Source: Streptosporangiaceae bacterium (lineage in GTDB: Bacteria; Actinomycetota; Actinomycetes; Streptosporangiales; Streptosporangiaceae). Taken from it: 54,725 nucleotides of DNA. Position numbers and translations under genes: made by a program. The stretch covers positions 1 to 54,725 of the forward strand of contig JASIBM010000468.1 of NCBI GenBank assembly GCA_030045175.1, written 5' to 3'. Each line of letters begins with the position of its first letter. Position 1 is the stretch's first letter. Below are positions 3,382 through 11,209 of this stretch, in pieces. Under the pieces are notes generated by a model. That model was not told the DNA's origin and did no database searches. It worked only from the letters and a program-made list of their open reading frames with translations.

Positions 3382-4344
3382 TCATGAGTACAGCGCGAGC
3401 GCGGCGGCGGCGGCCGCCCTGACCTGCTCGGCGAGCTCCGGCGGCGCGATCACCTTGCCGTCCTCGCCGAGCCGCAGCGCCAGCCGCCTGACCCACCGGG
3501 TATCAGGGGTGCGCAGCGTCACCCGCAGCCGCCCGTCGGCGAGCTCGCTGACCCGCTCGCACGGGTAGTACTCGGCGACCCAGCGGCCCGCCTCGGCGAG
3601 CTCGAGATCCACCCGCACGTCCCCTGCCGACGGCTGGAACAGGCCAGAGTCCACGTCGACGTGCTCGGCCTCGTCAGGCACCTGCGCGGCCACGTCAAGC
3701 AACGTCAGCGCCAGCACGCGGTCGAGCCGGAACAGCCGGACCGCCTCGGCCCGCCGGCACCACGCCTCCAGGTAGGCCCGGCCCTCCACGACGACCAGCC
3801 GCATCGGGTCCACGTCGCGCTCGGTCGCCTCGTCGCGACCTGGCACGTAGTACGACAGGTGCAGCCGCCGGCGCCGCCGCAGCGCGTCGGCGACCTGAGC
3901 CTGCACATCGGCGGGCGCGCGGCCGTCCTGGTGGACGGCGACCTGCGCGCTCGCCATCCCCGCGTCGCCGGCCGCGGCCTCGAGCTTGGCGATCGTCGTG
4001 CGCAGCGCCGAGCGGTCTTGCGGCCCGGGCAGCTCCGCGAGCATCCGCAGCGCCACGAGCAGCGCGCTCGCCTCATCGGTGCCGAGCCGCAGCGGCCTGC
4101 CAATCGACTCGGCCTGGCTGACCGTGATCTCGCCGCCCTCGTACGACAGGTCGATTGGGCAGTACGGGTCAGGCGAGCGCAGCTCGACGCACCACAGCAG
4201 GTTCAGGTCGTCGACGAGCTCGGTCTCGCTGACCCCGAACGCGGCGGCCGTCTCTGCCAGGCCCACCGCCTGCCGGCTGATCACGTAGGGCACCAGCGCG
4301 AGCAGGCGCTGCAGCCGGTCGCTCGCCCCAGGCCGGCCCGTCAT
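3382..4344 (-). CDS. pafC: PafC, WYL-domain transcriptional regulator
   Basis: 320 aa with an HTH-like N-terminus (LQRLLALVPYV...AAAFGVSETELVDDLNLL). It has a 4-nt ATGA overlap with the upstream pafB and sits in the pafBC-tatAC-helY synteny. Confidence 0.85.
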   Translation of the reverse strand: MTGRPGASDRLQRLLALVPYVISRQAVGLAETAAAFGVSETELVDDLNLLWCVELRSPDPYCPIDLSYEGGEITVSQAESIGRPLRLGTDEASALLVALRMLAELPGPQDRSALRTTIAKLEAAAGDAGMASAQVAVHQDGRAPADVQAQVADALRRRRRLHLSYYVPGRDEATERDVDPMRLVVVEGRAYLEAWCRRAEAVRLFRLDRVLALTLLDVAAQVPDEAEHVDVDSGLFQPSAGDVRVDLELAEAGRWVAEYYPCERVSELADGRLRVTLRTPDTRWVRRLALRLGEDGKVIAPPELAEQVRAAAAAALALYS

Positions 4345-5294
4345 GCCAGGGCCCCCTTGAGCCGGCGGATGACCGCGTCCCGCAGGTCGACGGGCTCGAG
4401 CACCACCGCGTCGGCGCCGAACGAGGCGATGTAATCGGCGTACCAGGCGACGTCGGAGAACGGGGCGCGAACCAGGTCCCAGCCCGGCTCCGGCGCCGCG
4501 CGGTCCGAGCTGGCCCGCCGGCGCAGGCCGTGCCCCGCGCCCTCGCGGACCCTCAGCACCGCGTCCCGTACGGCGGGCGCCGAGGCGTCCCAGGCTCGCA
4601 CCGTGTCACGCACGCTGACGCCGTCGGGCACGGTGACCGACCCCGGCGGGCCGGTGACGGTGACCGGGCCGTCGATCCGGCTCAGCCGGAACACCCGCTC
4701 CTCTCCCCGGTCGCTGTCCAGCCCGGCGACGTACCACCGGCCGTGCCTGTTCACCACGCCCCAGGGCTCGAGGTTCCTGCGCTGCGCGGCGGCGCGGCCC
4801 GCCGCCTGGTAGCTGAAGCTCACCGGCCGCCGGTCTCGCACCGCCCGCCACAGCGGCCCGAACGCGGCCTCGCCGGTCTGCAGCCTGGGCTCGATGCCCG
4901 GCTGACTCACTTCCTCGGCCTCGACGCCGGCCGCTCGCAGCTTCAGCAGCCCGCCCGCGGCGGCACCAGCCAGCTCGGCGCGCTGCCACACCCGGGCGGC
5001 CAGGCCGAGCACGGCCGCCTCGGCCGGCTCGAGCGCGATTTCCGGCAGCTCATAAGCCTGGCGCGAGATCCGGTAGCCGGTCTCCTCGTCGGTGACCGAG
5101 TTGACCCCGGTCTCGAGCGGGATGCCGAGCTCGCGAAGCTCGTCCTTATCCCGCTCGAACATCCGCTTGAACGCCTCGGGCGTGTCCGGGTAGCCGGGCA
5201 CGGCGTCGCGGATCTGCCACGCGGTCAGGTACCTCCGCGATGACAGCAGGCACACGACGAGGCTGAGCAGCCGCTCGGTCTTCTGCTTCGACAT
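4341..5294 (-). CDS. pafB: PafB, WYL-domain transcriptional regulator
   Basis: Start chosen at MSKQKTERLLSLVVCLLSSRRYLTAWQIRDAV (CAT 5292-5294). The longer track ORF adds a non-conserved extension. It is paired with pafC. Confidence 0.85.
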   Translation of the reverse strand: MSKQKTERLLSLVVCLLSSRRYLTAWQIRDAVPGYPDTPEAFKRMFERDKDELRELGIPLETGVNSVTDEETGYRISRQAYELPEIALEPAEAAVLGLAARVWQRAELAGAAAGGLLKLRAAGVEAEEVSQPGIEPRLQTGEAAFGPLWRAVRDRRPVSFSYQAAGRAAAQRRNLEPWGVVNRHGRWYVAGLDSDRGEERVFRLSRIDGPVTVTGPPGSVTVPDGVSVRDTVRAWDASAPAVRDAVLRVREGAGHGLRRRASSDRAAPEPGWDLVRAPFSDVAWYADYIASFGADAVVLEPVDLRDAVIRRLKGALA

Positions 5295-5314
5295 CGCCGC
5301 CTCCGCGCGCCCTA

Positions 5315-5364
5315 TTCCCGCAGTGCTGGCCCGGGGGACTTCCCGCAGTGCTGGCCCGGGGGAC
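5315..5364. repeat. Perfect 25-bp tandem duplication (ttcccgcagtgctggcccgggggac x2) in the pafB / DUF3866 divergent intergenic region
   Basis: Read directly: copy 1 is 5315-5339 and copy 2 is 5340-5364, identical. Confidence 0.95.
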
Positions 5365-5497
5365 ACGGCGCTCCCGGGGGCACCCCGGACCCCGATGGCC
5401 GGAACGCTCCGCAACTGACGGTACCTCGCGCGGGGATCTCGCGGCGGATTGTCACGGCTTCGCGCGGCGCGGCTTCCCCCGGCGCTACCCTGCCACC

Positions 5498-6604
5498 GTG
5501 ATCAGGTGGCGCCGCGGCGTGGTGGCCGCTGTCAGGCGGGAGTGGGCAGGCGCGGTCGAGCTCGACGTGACAGTACCCCCTGGGACAGCGGCGGTGCGCG
5601 CGCTCGCTTACCCGCGGCTGACCGGCCGCCCCGAGCCTGGCGACGAGGTGCTGCTCAACGCCGGGGCGCTTGAGCTTGGCCTGGGTACCGGCGGCTACGC
5701 GCTCGTGATCGCCATTCCTGACCGCCTGCCGCCCGACCAGCCCGGCCCCGGCCACCTGGTGAAAGCCAGGTACACGCCGATGCAGGCGATCGTGGCTGGA
5801 GCGGACGAGCAAGGCTCCGCGCACCACGACACCCTGCGTGACGCCGACGACATCGAAGGCATCGGCGTCGTGATCGCCGACCTGCACTCGGCGCTGCCCG
5901 CGGTGCTCGCTGGCTTTCATGCACAACGGCCAGGGCCGGCCAGTCCCGGCGGGCGAGCTGGATCATCCCGCGTCGCCTATCTCATGCTCGACGGCGGGGC
6001 GCTCCCTGCCTGGTTCTCGCGCACGGCGGCGACGCTGCGCGAGATCGGCTGGCTCGCCGGGATCGTCACGGTCGGGCAGGCGTTCGGCGGCGACGTCGAG
6101 GCGGTCACCGTGCACAGCGGCCTGCTCGCGGCCAGGCACGTCCTGGGCGCCGAGCTCGTCGTCGTCGCGCAGGGCCCGGGCAACCTGGGCACGGGGACGC
6201 GCTGGGGCTTCTCTGGCGTCGCCGCCGGCGAGGCGGTCAACGCGGTGGCCGTGCTCGGCGGCCGCCCGGTCGCCTCGCTTCGGGTCAGCGACGCGGACCC
6301 GCGCGAGCGGCATCGCGGCATCTCGCACCACAGCCTGACCGCGTACGGCCGGGTCGCGCTGGCAAGGGCCGACGTCGTCGTGCCCGACCTGCCAGGCGAG
6401 CTCGGGGCGCGGGTGCGCGCGGAGGCCGAGCCGCTGCGCAAGCGGCATGACCTCGTCCTGGTCAGCGTGGCCGGCTTGCGCGAGGTGCTCGCGGACTGCC
6501 CGGTGCCGCTGTCGACGATGGGCCGCGGCCTGGATCAGGACCTGGCGTATTTCCTCGCGGCGGCCGCGGCCGGCCGCCACGCGGCGACGCTGGGGCCGGC
6601 CTGA
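5498..6604 (+). CDS. DUF3866-like conserved actinobacterial protein
   Basis: The ORF reads VIRWRRGVVAAVRREWAGAVELDV...ARYTPMQ. The GTG start at 5498 is chosen on family-like N-terminus and length (~368 aa). Start is uncertain. Confidence 0.6.
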   Translation: MIRWRRGVVAAVRREWAGAVELDVTVPPGTAAVRALAYPRLTGRPEPGDEVLLNAGALELGLGTGGYALVIAIPDRLPPDQPGPGHLVKARYTPMQAIVAGADEQGSAHHDTLRDADDIEGIGVVIADLHSALPAVLAGFHAQRPGPASPGGRAGSSRVAYLMLDGGALPAWFSRTAATLREIGWLAGIVTVGQAFGGDVEAVTVHSGLLAARHVLGAELVVVAQGPGNLGTGTRWGFSGVAAGEAVNAVAVLGGRPVASLRVSDADPRERHRGISHHSLTAYGRVALARADVVVPDLPGELGARVRAEAEPLRKRHDLVLVSVAGLREVLADCPVPLSTMGRGLDQDLAYFLAAAAAGRHAATLGPA

Positions 6605-6640: not shown

Positions 6641-6660
6641 CCACGATCCCTAGCCGCGCA

Positions 6661-7674
6661 TCAGGGAGCCGGGTCCGGCCATGGGAATAGCGGATTGGCT
6701 ACCAGCGTCAGGAAGAGGTCTAGAGCGTTATGCATGGCATACCGGCGCCATGAGCCCGCGGCGCCACTGCAGCCGGTGGCGTCGTCCAGCTCGCCCTTCC
6801 GCTCATCCGAGAAATCAGAGATGCCGCGGATGACCATTAGATGGGCCCGGTTGTCATGATATATAGCTCGCGCGGCTCCGCCTGCTTCCATCTCAATGGC
6901 CGCCCGAAACCGGTTAGTCTGACGAAGCCACCGACTAAATGATGCGGCTGCGCTGACTATATCACCAGTTGCGACAGGGCCGACCAGATAGTCCGGGTAA
7001 TCGCCAGCCAGCGCAGGGACGCCGGCCGCGAGCACAGGATCCCTGTTGTGCTTCGTGCGCTCGCGCCACGAGCTGAAGCCTCCGCCCGCATCATGAAGGT
7101 AGCGGAAGTTATTGATATAGCTGACGATCTCCGGCTTCGCCTGCCAGGATACGCCACCGAGGTCGAATTCAACCCCATCTCCTGACTCAGCCGGCGTGGC
7201 CCGGGCCCCGTACAGGTACTCCTCGATGGAGGATGCTATGACCACGTCGCCCAAGCGCAACTTAGGGCTTAGTGCTCCTGCGATACCTACCAGGGCAAGT
7301 GCCCTGACATCGTAGCGCGCGAGCACGCTGGTCGCCGCCACTGCTGATGACGCTTGCCCCATCTCAAAGAGAACGACGGCAACTCCGCTGAGCGAGCTAG
7401 CACCGACCGCGAATGGATAGTGGTAGTACCCGCCGCCGTCGCTGCGGGGATCGCCAAAGCGAAGAATGTCGCGTGCGTAGTCGAACTCATCACGAGTCGG
7501 GATGATCAGGCATACGTCGACGGGGTTGCCCGTGCGGGCCGCACGGCCAGCAGCTGCCCCCAGATCCTGCGCGTTCCTGCGAGCCCCGAGGTCTGTGCCG
7601 TTCTTGACGATGCCGGTGTTGCCGTCACCGACCTGAATTACCTGATCGCCGACCTGACGATACTCAGTAGGCAT
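6661..7674 (-). CDS. PNP_UDP_1 / MTA-SAH-nucleosidase-fold protein with an N-terminal RHIM/BASS-like peptide (337 aa)
   Basis: Hallmark phosphorylase/nucleosidase-fold motifs are present: LALVGIAGAL, AIEMEAGGAARAI and MVIRGISDFSDE. The N-terminus is MPTEYRQVGDQVIQVGDGNTGIV. Start chosen at CAT 7672-7674, overlapping the upstream gene stop by 11 nt. The track start at 7722 is the alternative. Confidence 0.75.
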   Translation of the reverse strand: MPTEYRQVGDQVIQVGDGNTGIVKNGTDLGARRNAQDLGAAAGRAARTGNPVDVCLIIPTRDEFDYARDILRFGDPRSDGGGYYHYPFAVGASSLSGVAVVLFEMGQASSAVAATSVLARYDVRALALVGIAGALSPKLRLGDVVIASSIEEYLYGARATPAESGDGVEFDLGGVSWQAKPEIVSYINNFRYLHDAGGGFSSWRERTKHNRDPVLAAGVPALAGDYPDYLVGPVATGDIVSAAASFSRWLRQTNRFRAAIEMEAGGAARAIYHDNRAHLMVIRGISDFSDERKGELDDATGCSGAAGSWRRYAMHNALDLFLTLVANPLFPWPDPAP

Positions 7675-8176
7675 GGGATACGCCAGTGTTATTGTTGCCG
7701 TATTGCGACACGATGTCCCCATAATTGGTTATCCAGTTATGGTAGGCGACTTTAGCATCGCCGATCGCGTCCATGATCGTTCGTATCAGTTCCTCGATAA
7801 CGCTCCGGTCAGGGCTTGCCAGCAGAGTCTGCGGATCGCCTGAGGTCTGGATCATCAGGAGGTGATACGCTATTTTCCTGCGCTCCTTCTGGATGGCTCG
7901 GATAAGCTTAATCGTGCTCACCGCGGAGCAGGCCAGAACTCCGAGTATTGCATACGTGCCCGCGTTATGCACATGGAGTATCGCCATTATGATAGCCGCC
8001 AGGATACCGAGGCCTATCCACTTCGCCAGTGCCTTGAGATAGTCCTTCACCGGCGTGCCACGTCTCGGGTATACTGTCCTTACTTGCGCCCTGGCGATGT
8101 TTCGGAGCGGATACGCGTCCCGGCCAATCCACAGAACCCCCTTGGCGACCTGGACCTCCGTATTAATTCCTGCCAT
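7664..8176 (-). CDS. Small two-TM membrane protein (170 aa) with a beta-rich PH-like N-terminus and a C-terminal RHIM/BASS-like peptide, possibly DUF6232-like
   Basis: Two hydrophobic segments, WIGLGILAAIIMAILHV and YAILGVLACSAVSTIKLI, are flanked by basic residues (N-in/C-in). An SD-like GGGGGAAAGAG lies upstream of the ATG. The C-terminus is NYGDIVSQYGNNNTGVSHAY. G+C is far below the neighbours. The family name is a memory-based guess. Confidence 0.65.
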   Translation of the reverse strand: MAGINTEVQVAKGVLWIGRDAYPLRNIARAQVRTVYPRRGTPVKDYLKALAKWIGLGILAAIIMAILHVHNAGTYAILGVLACSAVSTIKLIRAIQKERRKIAYHLLMIQTSGDPQTLLASPDRSVIEELIRTIMDAIGDAKVAYHNWITNYGDIVSQYGNNNTGVSHAY

Positions 8177-8351
8177 TTCGCTCTTTCCCCCTATATGATC
8201 ACGATGCGTGGCCTCGCTTGCTCATACGGTTATTAAGGCAGGCGAGCATGTATTACCACATGTTGATTGCATCGCGGTCATCTACCAGCGCTCTACCATT
8301 TCTCTTCCGATGACGCGAAGAGCCCGGAACGACGTGCGGGCCGCAGCGCTG

Positions 8352-9311
8352 TCAGCCGGTAGCGGCCAGGATGTCGATGACGAACACCAGCGTGTCGGTG
8401 CCCTTGATGCCGACCGACGGCTGCCCGGCCTTGCCATAGCCATCGGCCGGGGGCACCACGAGCATTACCCTGCTGCCCACCGGGACCCCGACGAGGCCGG
8501 TCTTCCACGCCGTGATGACGTTGTCCAGCGGGAACGAGGTCGGCGGCGCACCCGGCTGAGCCTTCGTCGGCCAGTCGTTGTTGAACTCCTTGCCCGTTCG
8601 CCAGATTGAGCCGATGTACCTCGTGACGAGCGTTTGCCCTGCCTTCACCGCCGGGCCGGTGCCCTTGATCAGCGTGGTCACCACCAGGCTGGTCGGCGGG
8701 GCCTTCTTGGGGAACGTCAGGCTCGGCGCCTGGCCCGGTGTCGCCTTGACCGTGGGCAGCGCGCCTCCGCCGTTGCTGACCTGCTTGCCCGACGCGCTCG
8801 TCGTCGGCGTGAACGCCTCGGTCGGGTCGATGACCCAGACCATCGTGTCCGTGGGCTTCACGCCGAGTTGCGGCTGGCCCTGCTTCCCGTAGCCGTACTT
8901 GGGCGGCACGACAGCGAGCTCGCGGCTGCCGATCCGCGCACCGGTCATGGCTCGCTGCAGGCCAGTAAGCCCGAGATTGACCGGAAGAAGCTGCGGGCCC
9001 GTCGCGTAGGTGGAATAGATCAGCTTGTGGGTGGAGCCGCGCCAGACGAAGACGTCGAAGTTCGCGAGGTAGGAATCCAACGCGGTCAGGGCGGCGCCGT
9101 GCCCCGCCGTCACGGTCTTGGTGACCAGCGAGCCGCTCGCCGGCTCGGCGGGGATCTTGACGGTGGGCGCCTTGCCCACGGCGCCGGCGACTGTGACCGA
9201 CTTGTTGGGGTTGGCAGGCGTGGCGGACGAGCACCCCGCCAGCGCGATGCCGACGGCTAGCACGGTGCCGACGGCGGGCGGGGTGAGGAGCGCAGCGGTC
9301 AGGCGTCGCAT
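8352..9311 (-). CDS. FKBP-type peptidyl-prolyl isomerase lipoprotein (two FKBP domains)
   Basis: The signal peptide has a lipobox (IALAGCSS). Two repeated FKBP-like segments are present (VTRYIGSIWRTGKEFNNDW... and DVFVWRGSTHKLIYSTY...). Confidence 0.8.
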   Translation of the reverse strand: MRRLTAALLTPPAVGTVLAVGIALAGCSSATPANPNKSVTVAGAVGKAPTVKIPAEPASGSLVTKTVTAGHGAALTALDSYLANFDVFVWRGSTHKLIYSTYATGPQLLPVNLGLTGLQRAMTGARIGSRELAVVPPKYGYGKQGQPQLGVKPTDTMVWVIDPTEAFTPTTSASGKQVSNGGGALPTVKATPGQAPSLTFPKKAPPTSLVVTTLIKGTGPAVKAGQTLVTRYIGSIWRTGKEFNNDWPTKAQPGAPPTSFPLDNVITAWKTGLVGVPVGSRVMLVVPPADGYGKAGQPSVGIKGTDTLVFVIDILAATG

Positions 9312-9544: not shown

Positions 9545-10582
9545 TTGAGGCTAGTCACCGCGCATCGCACGACAGGCAAGTCCAGGAGGGCAGCACGCCA
9601 CGCGGCGCCAGGGCAGGCCCCGGCCCGGGTCAGGCGAGCGGGCCTGGTGGCCACCGTGGCCATGCTCGCGGGCGGCCTGGTCGCCGTCGTCGCGGCCTTC
9701 GCGGGCGGCATGGTCGCGACGCCGCTGCCCGGCCAGTCAGCCAGCCCGGTGGCCACCGACGCCATCAGCAGCGTCAGCCGCGCGGGCCTGGCTAGCCCTG
9801 GCTACCCGGACAAGATCAGCGGTAGTACCGTCGCGGCCCGCTCGCGGCCGGCGAAGCCGGCCAGCAAGGCCAGGACACGGCGGCCCGAGCGCCCGGCAGC
9901 CCGTCCCGCCGCCCGGTCGGGCGGGCACCATGTCGCGCGTCATGTCGCGCGCACCTGGTGGGAAGAGCGCCAGGTCGCGCGCCACACCACACGGACCTGG
10001 TGGGAAGAGCGCCAGGTCGCGCGTCATGTCGCACGGGCCTGGTGGGAGGACCACCTGATCGCGCGTCATGTCGCCGGAGCCTGGCCGGGTAAGCGCCCGG
10101 TCACCCGCCGCGCCGCCGTCGCCAAGCGCGCCAGCTCCAGTCCAGGCAAGAGCACCACGGCCAGCACGCTGCATTGCTCCGGGTCGAGCGCGATGCTCCC
10201 GGAGAACTACGTGACCATCGTGAGCTTCCTGATCAAGCACGGGTACACCAGGCTCGCGGCCGCCGGGATCGCGGGGAACATCTGGCAGGAATCCCAGGGC
10301 AACCCCGAGGCGGTGGGCTCCGGCGGCGGCGGCCTGATCGGGTTCACGCCGCTGCCCGCTGGCTACGTCACGGGCAACCCGGCAGTGGACCTGCAGACGC
10401 AACTCGATGCCATCTTGACCTACAACGAGCAGTGGGCGCAGTACATCCCGGCGCTGAACGCCGCGACCAGCGCGACGCAGGCCGCGGATATCTACATGAA
10501 CGACTTCGAGCGCCCCGGCATCCCGGCCGCGGCCAACCGGGAGGCGGCAGCGGTCGCTGTCGCCGGCGCCTGCGGGTTCTAG
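9545..10582 (+). CDS. Secreted or membrane-anchored cell-wall hydrolase-like protein (C-terminal phage-tail-lysozyme/transglycosylase-like domain)
   Basis: Basic N-region plus a hydrophobic anchor (LVATVAMLAGGLVAVVAAFAGG). The C-terminal domain contains AAAGIAGNIWQESQGNPEAVGSGGGGLIGFTP...AADIYMNDFERPG. The 9545 start is TTG and is uncertain. Confidence 0.65.
   Translation: MRLVTAHRTTGKSRRAARHAAPGQAPARVRRAGLVATVAMLAGGLVAVVAAFAGGMVATPLPGQSASPVATDAISSVSRAGLASPGYPDKISGSTVAARSRPAKPASKARTRRPERPAARPAARSGGHHVARHVARTWWEERQVARHTTRTWWEERQVARHVARAWWEDHLIARHVAGAWPGKRPVTRRAAVAKRASSSPGKSTTASTLHCSGSSAMLPENYVTIVSFLIKHGYTRLAAAGIAGNIWQESQGNPEAVGSGGGGLIGFTPLPAGYVTGNPAVDLQTQLDAILTYNEQWAQYIPALNAATSATQAADIYMNDFERPGIPAAANREAAAVAVAGACGF
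9953..10078 (+). repeat. 3 x 42-nt in-frame tandem repeat encoding (T/A)WWEE(R/D)xxARHxxx
   Basis: Units are 9953-9994, 9995-10036 and 10037-10078, with partial copies on both flanks (9929-9952 and 10079-10090). Confidence 0.9.
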
Positions 10583-10681: not shown

Positions 10682-11209
10682 ATGCGGACGCGGGACGCCA
10701 GGACCTCCTTCGAGGAGTTCGTGCTGGCTCGCTCGGGCAGCCTGCTGCGGACCGCGCTGCTGCTCACGGGGCAGAACCGGGCCGAGGCCGAGGACCTGCT
10801 GCAGCTGGCGCTCGAGCGCGCCTACCGGCACTGGGCGCGGGTGCACGCCGCTGGCGATCCCGAACGGTACGTGCGCCGGATACTCGCCAACGCCTCCGCC
10901 GATCGCTGGCGGCGGCTGGCCCGCAGGCCGGAGCAGCCGCTTCCGGCCGGTGACGCTGGCCCGTCCACGCCGGACCTCTCGGCCGAGGTCGCCGAGCGCG
11001 ACTTCCTGCTCAGGGCGCTGGCGCAACTGCCGCCGCGCCAGCGGGCCGTGATGGTGCTGCGGTACTTCGACGACATGACAGAAGCCGAGATCGCCGACGT
11101 GCTCGGCTGCAGCGTCGGCACGGTCAAAAGCCAGGTAGCGCGGGCGCTCGCGCGGCTGCGAGACGCGACCGAGCCGCGGGCCACGGCGAGCCGGGGCGCG
11201 GGAGGCTGA
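10682..11209 (+). CDS. ECF-type sigma-70 family RNA polymerase sigma factor
   Basis: 175 aa. Region 2 is like DLLQLALERAYRHWARV. Region 4 is like LPPRQRAVMVLRYFDDMTEAEIADVLGCSVGTVKSQVARALARLR. Confidence 0.85.
   Translation: MRTRDARTSFEEFVLARSGSLLRTALLLTGQNRAEAEDLLQLALERAYRHWARVHAAGDPERYVRRILANASADRWRRLARRPEQPLPAGDAGPSTPDLSAEVAERDFLLRALAQLPPRQRAVMVLRYFDDMTEAEIADVLGCSVGTVKSQVARALARLRDATEPRATASRGAGG

Follow-up and report, generated by a model that had tools for sequence, protein, structure and literature searches.

The amyloid signalling systems defined in bacteria to date are built around effectors with a Bell domain and sensors of the NLR or TGP type. In the Bell/NLR pairs with the motifs BASS1-10 (bioRxiv 10.1101/2020.01.06.895854), a motif of about 20-25 residues rich in G, N, Q, V and I is present at the C-terminus of a membrane protein and at the N-terminus of its neighbour, the genes are adjacent, collinear and often overlapping, the motifs are most alike within a pair, and the hosts are filamentous Actinobacteria. 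Two other described systems are close. In the abortive infection system Bab/Agp with BASS11, for which amyloid signalling has been shown experimentally, Agp is a known non-NLR partner (bioRxiv 10.1101/2024.11.07.622273), and in fungi PNP_UDP and SesB enzymes carry amyloid signalling motifs (PMC9815663). Here we describe a two-gene locus which shares these features of the Bell/NLR pairs. It lies on the minus strand of a 54,725-nucleotide stretch of DNA from a Streptosporangiaceae bacterium (contig JASIBM010000468.1; the whole stretch is called the window). Gene 1 codes for a membrane protein of the DUF6232 family and gene 2 for a PNP_UDP nucleosidase, and the C-terminus of the first and the N-terminus of the second carry the common motif h-G-D-x-[IV]-x-Q-x-G-x-x-N-x-G.

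The likeness of the two termini had been noticed in a first-pass annotation made from the letters of the DNA, and its coordinates and translations of both genes were correct on rereading. The ungapped alignment of the two motifs contains the 8 identities in 17 positions that it had counted. Since the codons differ at six of the eight identical positions, as also claimed there, and agree at only two, the likeness is kept at the peptide level and is not due to a recent duplication; DNA identity over the motif is 25/57, and gene conversion does not explain the pair of the window. The best ungapped BLOSUM62 segment of the pair scores 42, compared to 16.8 +/- 3.5 for composition-preserving shuffles, of which 1 in 20,000 reaches 42, and to a best score of 23 in the same test against the heads of the 163 other open reading frames (ORFs) of the window. 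Within the 54.7 kb a hidden Markov model (HMM) built from the motif has exactly two matches, namely the tail of gene 1 (28.5 bits) and the head of gene 2 (25.3 bits). G, N, Q, V and I make up 57% of the motif and P and L 0.7%, a composition bias which is also reported for BASS motifs (bioRxiv 10.1101/2020.01.06.895854). Both motifs are set apart from the folded domains and are predicted by AlphaFold2 (AF2) in the monomers as unstructured or weakly beta. Enrichment in G, N, Q, V and I, depletion of P and L, and beta propensity, by which amyloid signalling motifs are recognized, are all found here, the strands in the AF2 models being of low confidence. The genes overlap by 11 nt, which suggests that their translation may be coupled.

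Gene 1 matches the DUF6232 family (PF19744) with 59.4 bits over residues 8-138, above the Pfam gathering score of 27.4, and its protein ends in ...NYGDIVSQYGNNNTGVSHAY*. The AF2 model, generated with a multiple sequence alignment of 15 homologues, has a beta-rich N-terminus followed by a transmembrane hairpin, two strands, a helix and a disordered tail. Hydrophobic helices are modelled at residues 42-66 and 72-99, in agreement with two peaks above 1.6 in the Kyte-Doolittle hydropathy (19-residue window). Across the homologues this segment remains hydrophobic while its sequence is variable. Such a hairpin topology would bring the tail and the two parts of the soluble domain to one side of the membrane, presumably the cytoplasmic one. 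A fold search of the AF2 model against the PDB returned no match below E=0.03, and a PH-like fold, which had been guessed for DUF6232, found no support there. The tail (residues 154-170) has a predicted local distance difference test score (pLDDT) below 50. Seven residues of this region are invariant in 15 close homologues: G153, D154, Q158, Y159, G160, N163 and G165.

The protein of gene 2 begins with MPTEYRQVGDQVIQVGDGNTGIVK when translated from the ATG at 7674. Only two in-frame starts, ATG 7722 and ATG 7674, are present 5' of the PNP domain, and translation from either one has to include the motif, which lies downstream of both. Public gene calls use ATG 7722, which gives a 353-residue form (P0016) starting inside the coding region of gene 1 in another frame (7675-7722). 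We reject it as the likely start and favour 7674, as the homologues all open with M-x-x-(E/N)-Y at the gene overlap; even if used, ATG 7722 would leave the motif in gene 2. P0017-P0021 and P0067, the six nucleosidases closest to gene 2, conserve this motif, and so do the locus partners. In the AF2 model it contains three short strands (residues 4-8, 11-15 and 21-24) at low pLDDT, which stays at 47-59 over residues 1-49 and at 47-55 in the linker, a segment variable in both sequence and length among P0016-P0021. The head of gene 2 also contains an internal duplication of a QVGD heptad, with a direct repeat in the DNA (TCACCGACCTGA at 7625-7636 and TCGCCGACCTGA at 7646-7657, 21-nt spacing). This duplication is seen solely in the window, L001 being the closest relative. 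The features of the locus are listed in Table 1.

Table 1. Features of the DUF6232/nucleosidase locus, with positions counted along the window.
Feature	Position	Strand	Basis
Gene 1, 170-residue DUF6232 membrane protein	7664-8176	minus	Pfam PF19744
Transmembrane hairpin of gene 1, residues ~42-99	7880-8053	minus	AF2 and hydropathy
C-terminal tail motif of gene 1, N-Y-G-D-I-V-S-Q-Y-G-N-N-N-T-G-V-S-HAY	7667-7726	minus	Outside the DUF6232 Pfam model
Shine-Dalgarno-like AGGGGGAAAG	8183-8192	minus	6 nt 5' of the gene 1 ATG, read from the sequence
Overlap of gene 2 start (7674-7672) and gene 1 stop (7666-7664), 11 nt	7664-7674	minus	Read from the sequence
Gene 2, PNP_UDP nucleosidase	6661-7674	minus	Pfam PF01048
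N-terminal motif of gene 2, MPTEYR-Q-V-G-D-Q-V-I-Q-V-G-D-G-N-T-G-I-V-K	7603-7674	minus	Kept in homologues
Low-complexity linker of gene 2, residues ~25-49	7528-7602	minus	AF2 pLDDT
PNP_UDP_1 domain of gene 2, residues ~50-337 and stop codon	6661-7527	minus	PF01048
Low-GC two-gene islet between the DUF3866 and FKBP genes, beside pafB/pafC	6650-8300		GC, GC3

Downstream of the linker, gene 2 matches PF01048 with 54.7 bits (Pfam gathering score 25.1), and from residue 50 onwards AF2 gives a confident fold with a pLDDT of about 90 or more over most of the PNP domain. The EMEA and RGISD stretches are intact; E261, M262, R283, G284, S286 and D287 are invariant and E263 nearly so among 24 homologues. 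A sequence search of the PDB reaches distant methylthioadenosine/S-adenosylhomocysteine nucleosidases (3e-8), and PADLOC returns PDC-M60C (2.6e-14) and the CBASS 'Effector PN-superfamily' (2.9e-9). Relatives of the enzyme are fused to EAD1, bDLD3, TIR, TPR, AbiTii and DUF5955 domains, and domains of these kinds serve as adaptors and partners in the conflict systems of actinobacteria (PMC7159879). Within defence systems, PNP domains act as ATP nucleosidases, and Cap17 and DtcC cleave ATP (bioRxiv 10.1101/2023.01.24.525353). Gene 2 is predicted to be a nucleosidase of this defence-effector type.

We analyzed 46 loci, i.e. the DNA around DUF6232 relatives, taken from genomes and metagenomes. In 30 of them the motif is present on the DUF6232 tail and again within the first ~25 residues of the next gene, which is the arrangement by which amyloid signalling pairs are defined (a short motif common to a C-terminus and to the adjacent, collinear N-terminus), and it persists down to about 30% identity between the DUF6232 proteins. 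The two genes usually overlap by 4 nt (ATGA or GTGA), in some cases by 8 nt, and the motif HMM finds exactly two copies in each of these loci. As the flanking genes have ordinary housekeeping functions and are not the same at different loci, the module consists of these two genes alone. Neither a third copy of the motif nor a third gene that is conserved was found within +/-3-5 kb of any pair, and the window has no third copy either. In length, composition, terminal position and gene arrangement, the motif fits the general definition of amyloid signalling motifs.

The paired motifs also co-vary, as the first-pass annotation had asked to be checked. Among 20 non-identical pairs the mean similarity is 54.5 within and 47.6 between pairs, and 1 in 100,000 permutations of the partners reaches the observed within-pair value in a test that takes no account of shared phylogeny; a within-pair similarity above that between pairs is another property of amyloid signalling pairs. 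The excess resides in the variable columns, namely after GD, before Q and in N-x-G. Two pairs illustrate it: a one-residue insertion is common to both partners in L041 (QIGGIGNVG and QIGGSGNTG), and the conserved Gln is gone from both partners in L032 (KIT and KMY).

What the motif is attached to on the second protein changes between clades. In the clade nearest to the window the second gene is a nucleosidase, and two further nucleosidase pairs were confirmed by looking up their contigs. In the other clades (Streptomyces, Kitasatospora, uncultured Actinomycetota and soil metagenomes) it is a helical protein of about 105 residues which keeps the N-terminal motif (for example L002:5489-5821 and L009:5492-5815, with about 20 other loci). 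The motif pair therefore survives the exchange of the partner. The helical protein matches DUF5955 below threshold in 11 of 16 cases (best E 0.0019) and resembles the C-terminal domains of PNP-DUF5955 fusions marginally (about 8 bits locally); in PNP_UDP proteins such as P0098, a DUF5955 domain forms the C-terminal part. These matches hint at an adaptor chain in which the motif and DUF5955 would connect DUF6232 with PNP. A search of the protein database for other motif-bearing domains with an alignment of motif plus linker retrieved just three fragments of the small partner.

Loss of one element is also seen. In L012 (4965-5492) the partner gene is lost and the tail has decayed to ...QYDNRNTRK, and in L013 (4812-5393) a truncated DUF6232 N-terminus is fused in frame with the partner's motif and helical domain; both are decay products. 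On the enzyme side, the nucleosidases P0022, P0025 and P0028, whose BLASTP local identity to gene 2 is 66-69%, have neither the motif nor a DUF6232 neighbour and head unrelated operons next to NB-ARC/TPR genes. The motif is in this way strictly tied to an adjoining DUF6232 gene. The genes 3' of these motif-less homologues have no kinship with anything near the pair of the window. Their operons are conserved (L054:4001-8784, L058:4001-8748 and L056:4001-8766) and code for proteins without a Pfam match, of ~715-737, 340-354 and 166 residues in L054 and L058 and of 390, 288 and 493 residues in L056. A divergently transcribed NB-ARC/TPR regulator gene upstream of PNP adjoins it in L054, while a methyltransferase gene lies between them in L058. 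These operons probably represent another uncharacterised conflict system.

A wider view of DUF6232 links it to established BASS motifs. A profile search of 1.84 billion representatives yielded 322 DUF6232-like clusters, and the tails were classed in the best 150 of these. The window-type motif ends 65 of the 150. Other tails consist of GDK-type repeats or read ...DLRGAxGVQ[VIL]Gx(N)xQxNxF, which is BASS3. Against an HMM built from 96 published BASS3 sequences (PMC8086366, supplementary file 38), for which the maximum over 4,400 shuffles is 9.3 bits, the BASS3-type DUF6232 tails score 21-47 bits. BASS3 is a RHIM-like motif for which fibrils and prions have been shown experimentally (bioRxiv 10.1101/2020.01.06.895854). 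In every locus with enough upstream sequence (L048-L050 and the Nocardia loci L005, L006 and L008; L048:459-1535, L005:4346-5489, L006:4460-5489 and L008:3089-4052), a gene for a Bell-like protein of 130-150 residues lies directly 5' of the BASS3-tailed DUF6232 gene on the same strand. These neighbours begin, as Bell proteins do, with M-[DE]-P-[VI]-T-x-I-...-ALA-x-GA and end in a BASS3 that matches, and in Nocardia a specific variant, RGANIGNIGDH, is present on both the DUF6232 and the Bell-like protein. DUF6232 is therefore a second kind of BASS-bearing membrane protein, and the tie to the BASS and RHIM world proposed in the first-pass annotation holds at the level of the family (up to 47 bits against the shuffle maximum).

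Further architectures occur in the family. DUF6232 is found in TIR_2-DUF6232 and FHA-DUF6232 fusions and in an all-in-one form with DUF6232, a degenerate motif and an unknown domain of ~190 residues (P0191, P0146, P0177 and P0189). Tails of tandem GDK-h-x pentapeptide-like repeats, such as GDKFDGDKFDGSKFDGD, are present in L042:3001-3507, L044:880-1401, P0135, P0153, P0172, P0186 and P0253; in L042 and L044 they are followed by a small hydrophobic ORF, which is conserved and has no matching motif.

The motif of the window itself belongs neither to RHIM nor to BASS3. The RHIM core tetrad (I/V)-Q-(I/V/L)-G, to which the first-pass annotation had compared IQVG of gene 2, also occurs in some relatives (VQVG, in the tail of L027). 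Gene 1 (SQYG) and most pairs (TQHG, TQYG and RQYG) lack it, and the residues flanking the motif Gln vary and are often aromatic. The Pfam RHIM model PF12721 finds no match at E<=10 in the isolated heads and tails of the window pair and L027, and none at E<=1 in the whole proteins of genes 1 and 2; the DUF6232 tail of P0115 reaches 14.7 bits, under the 20-bit cut-off. Comparison with BASS3 was made by HMM and with the published BASS1-10 sets by the presence of hexamers. The head of gene 2 scores 10.6 bits with the BASS3 HMM, just over the shuffle maximum of 9.3, and the tail of gene 1 less than 3.5. The stretch QVGDGNT in the core of gene 2 recurs unchanged within the BASS3 core, and the hexamers GDHNIG, GDHNVG, GDGNIG, GDGNTG and GDNNTG are absent from 69 supplementary files covering BASS1-10, the NLR side and unassigned motifs. 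Membership in RHIM or BASS3 is therefore rejected for the window motif on these scores. The profile searches proposed at first thus fail for this motif while they succeed for other DUF6232 tails, which match BASS3.

RHIM, BASS3, PP and the present family have in common a core x-Q-x-G-x-x-N, which reads IQVGDGN in gene 2 and VQVGDGNT in BASS3. The core of RIPK3, which like RIPK1 contains a RHIM, reads VQVGDNN. In comparison to RHIM and BASS3, the upstream (YH-h-GD) and downstream (G-h-h-K) halves of the window family are different and its Gln is not reliably flanked by I or V. The fungal PUASM (PMC9815663) places a PNP_UDP enzyme under the control of a short amyloid motif, to which the window system, with an enzyme of the same superfamily, would be similar; the PUASM pattern FxGxGxQxxGxGxF and GDxVxQxGxxNxG are alike in the Q..G.G half. 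However, the fungal motif is at the C-terminus of the enzyme and its partner is a NACHT NLR, whereas gene 2 has its motif at the N-terminus and a membrane protein as the partner.

In place of the helical Bell domain of the Bell/NLR pairs, gene 1 has a beta-rich DUF6232 domain split by a transmembrane hairpin, and thus no effector of the Bell or HeLo-like type. In place of an NB-ARC or NACHT NLR with repeats, gene 2 has PNP_UDP_1 only, and the alternative partners are the small helical proteins. The motif also forms a separate class, missed by the BASS3 HMM and absent from the published sets; other DUF6232 proteins bear true BASS3 and adjoin Bell-like proteins. Bab/Agp (bioRxiv 10.1101/2024.11.07.622273) is likewise a two-gene system with a small membrane-active protein carrying the motif at its C-terminus and a non-NLR partner carrying it at its N-terminus. 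However, Agp is a large TPR-GreA/B-C-PIN sensor-nuclease whereas gene 2 has no sensing domain, Bab is related to Bell and gene 1 to DUF6232, the motif families differ, and the hosts are E. coli and an actinobacterium.

Two other comparisons concern the enzyme. In the EAD and Death-like systems (Kaur et al., PMC7159879), a homotypic adaptor is present in adjacent gene products with the adjacent copies most alike, and the PNPase is a common effector; PNP homologues of gene 2 bear EAD1 or bDLD3 in place of the motif. EADs are globular helical domains, whereas the adaptor of the window is an unstructured peptide of ~20 residues. Cap17 and DtcC (bioRxiv 10.1101/2023.01.24.525353) have a PNP-fold effector, to which gene 2 would be comparable by its intact EME and SD motifs, its PADLOC matches and the fusions of its homologues. 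In contrast to gene 2, those enzymes are switched on by cyclic-nucleotide binding or phosphorylation.

The first-pass annotation had considered an enzyme as partner to be a new architecture. Enzymes with such motifs are known from the fungal PNP_UDP and SesB proteins, and a partner other than an NLR is known from Agp, so that the claim is only partly right. Apart from this and from the membership in RHIM or BASS3, the reading given there is in large part borne out by the tests it had proposed. A pairing without any NLR or sensor was not found in the literature searched; neither were DUF6232 as a membrane module and the motif class of the window. The same literature does not mention DUF6232 or DUF5955 and describes no bacterial nucleosidase controlled by such a motif. 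The motif class, the membrane module and the NLR-free pairing with an enzyme thus appear to be the new elements. In our reading, the locus would represent a new BASS-like motif class with a new membrane module and an enzyme partner that works without an NLR.

How might the two proteins work together? We propose that they form a self-contained module of conflict, which probably serves abortive infection or regulated cell death. In this model gene 1 would be anchored in the membrane through its hairpin and expose the disordered C-terminal tail of ~20 residues to the cytoplasm, while gene 2 would present the motif at its extreme N-terminus, ahead of a flexible linker and the nucleosidase domain. 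The two copies probably act as a homotypic pairing device and most likely stack in register as short beta-arches, in the manner of cross-beta templating by BASS and RHIM motifs. Pairing would link the two proteins physically, and the nucleosidase would thereby cluster and become active. We lean towards this parallel, in-register cross-beta (BASS-like) co-assembly at the membrane, because the motifs are collinear, have Gly, Asn and Gln at the same positions and co-vary in the same columns, and because the family uses proven amyloid motifs.

Several observations weigh against it. As the motif of the window fails the RHIM and BASS3 models and its hexamers are absent from BASS1-10, its amyloid behaviour would have to be extrapolated from its relatives. 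No recognisable sensor domain is present in either protein of the window, and the tight overlap of the genes would suit a constitutive 1:1 complex equally well. Besides the phylogeny left out of the permutation test, gene conversion may supply part of the co-variation, since some pairs are alike in DNA (39/57 identity over the motifs in L032). L025 has an intact-looking tail and no partner. The 54.7-kb window contains no recognisable defence island around the module, and no DUF6232 relative was found in viral contigs.

The constitutive complex is a serious rival, although we judge it less probable. Here a beta-zipper or beta-augmentation without amyloid would tether the nucleosidase or the helical partner permanently to DUF6232, and any regulation would come from the DUF6232 domain and not from templated polymerisation. 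Genes that overlap or are coupled by 4 nt bring the finished C-terminus of gene 1 near to the emerging N-terminus of gene 2, where such a complex could assemble co-translationally; the absence of a sensor or NLR from the module, the small beta-meander which is all that AF2 shows, and the failure of the motif in the RHIM and BASS3 models are consistent with it as well. Yet the same overlaps of genes occur in the Bell/NLR BASS pairs. Collinear homologous motifs with identical G, N and Q positions and column-wise co-variation are expected of parallel in-register stacking and not of an asymmetric interface, and the BASS-like composition and the true BASS3 in sister DUF6232 proteins also argue for cross-beta co-assembly.

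It seems rather unlikely to us that both proteins are effectors, one acting on the membrane and the other on nucleotides, which are switched on jointly by a motif-bearing sensor encoded elsewhere, e.g. an NLR. This would resemble the fungal three-gene NLR/HELLP/SBP clusters and is not exclusive of cross-beta co-assembly. The BASS3 loci point in this direction: as the motif is C-terminal on both the DUF6232 and the Bell-like protein, a third, nucleating partner elsewhere (perhaps an NLR) is implied for them. Non-adjacent partners have precedents in fungi, and the lack of a sensor domain in the proteins of the window would be explained. Around the window-type pairs and in the window, however, the searches for a third copy described above came back empty, the signature hexamers are missing from the published NLR-side sets, and the strict layout of C-terminus and N-terminus with gene overlap is that of a two-partner pair. 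Finally, a functionless chance likeness of termini rich in G and N, or a neutral remnant of a duplication at the junction, for which one may cite the short, compositionally biased segments and the mere 8/17 identities of the window pair taken alone, is hardly credible and is refuted by the comparative data, considering the shuffle probability of ~5e-5, the invariant tail residues in the 15 close homologues, the 30 pairs at DUF6232 identities down to ~30%, the synonymous codon divergence beside amino-acid conservation and the decay of the tail upon loss of the partner (L012).

Within the cross-beta reading one can go a step further, at a good deal more risk. DUF6232 might itself be the sensor, its tail turning cross-beta upon perturbation of the membrane (e.g. 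phage entry, lysis or loss of membrane potential) and templating the soluble ATP nucleosidase into an active polymer, an idea we regard as speculative and on balance doubtful. If this is so, two proteins would make up a prion-like immune switch that works without an NLR, and the signal would pass from membrane protein to enzyme, opposite to the direction from NLR to Bell. The DUF6232 tail would then be a universal socket for swappable partners (PNP, the DUF5955-like adaptor and BASS3/Bell).

The surroundings of the module differ from it in composition. GC is 0.60 in the islet and 0.71-0.75 in the flanks, and the GC content at third codon positions (GC3) is 0.67-0.68 and 0.88-0.94, respectively; by these values we take the module to be a horizontally acquired two-gene islet. 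It sits in a conserved core region of actinobacteria with PafC (3382-4344), PafB (4341-5414) and DUF3866 (5348-6604) on one side and FKBP (8352-9311) on the other. No convincing direct repeats or att-like sites flank the islet, and a scan for consensus promoters and terminators found nothing on the minus strand. Beyond FKBP, the ORF 9545-10582 contains a 42-nt tandem repeat (9928-10084, 3.7 copies) encoding ARHVARxWWEERQV-like repeats; its protein has a C-terminal Phage_lysozyme2 domain, and a gene for an extracytoplasmic function (ECF) sigma factor (10682-11209) lies just downstream.

For bacterial amyloid signalling, DUF6232 would add a second membrane module, which bears either BASS3 or a previously uncatalogued motif class, and the locus of the window would wire such a motif straight to a nucleotide-degrading effector without an NLR. 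One short peptide would thereby couple a constant membrane protein to interchangeable partners. With about 1.5 kb and two genes, the system is compact enough to ask whether prion-like templating can activate an enzyme as well as a pore-former, and what triggers such a switch when there is no dedicated receptor. For DUF6232 and DUF5955, two Pfam families of unknown function, it provides leads to their function.

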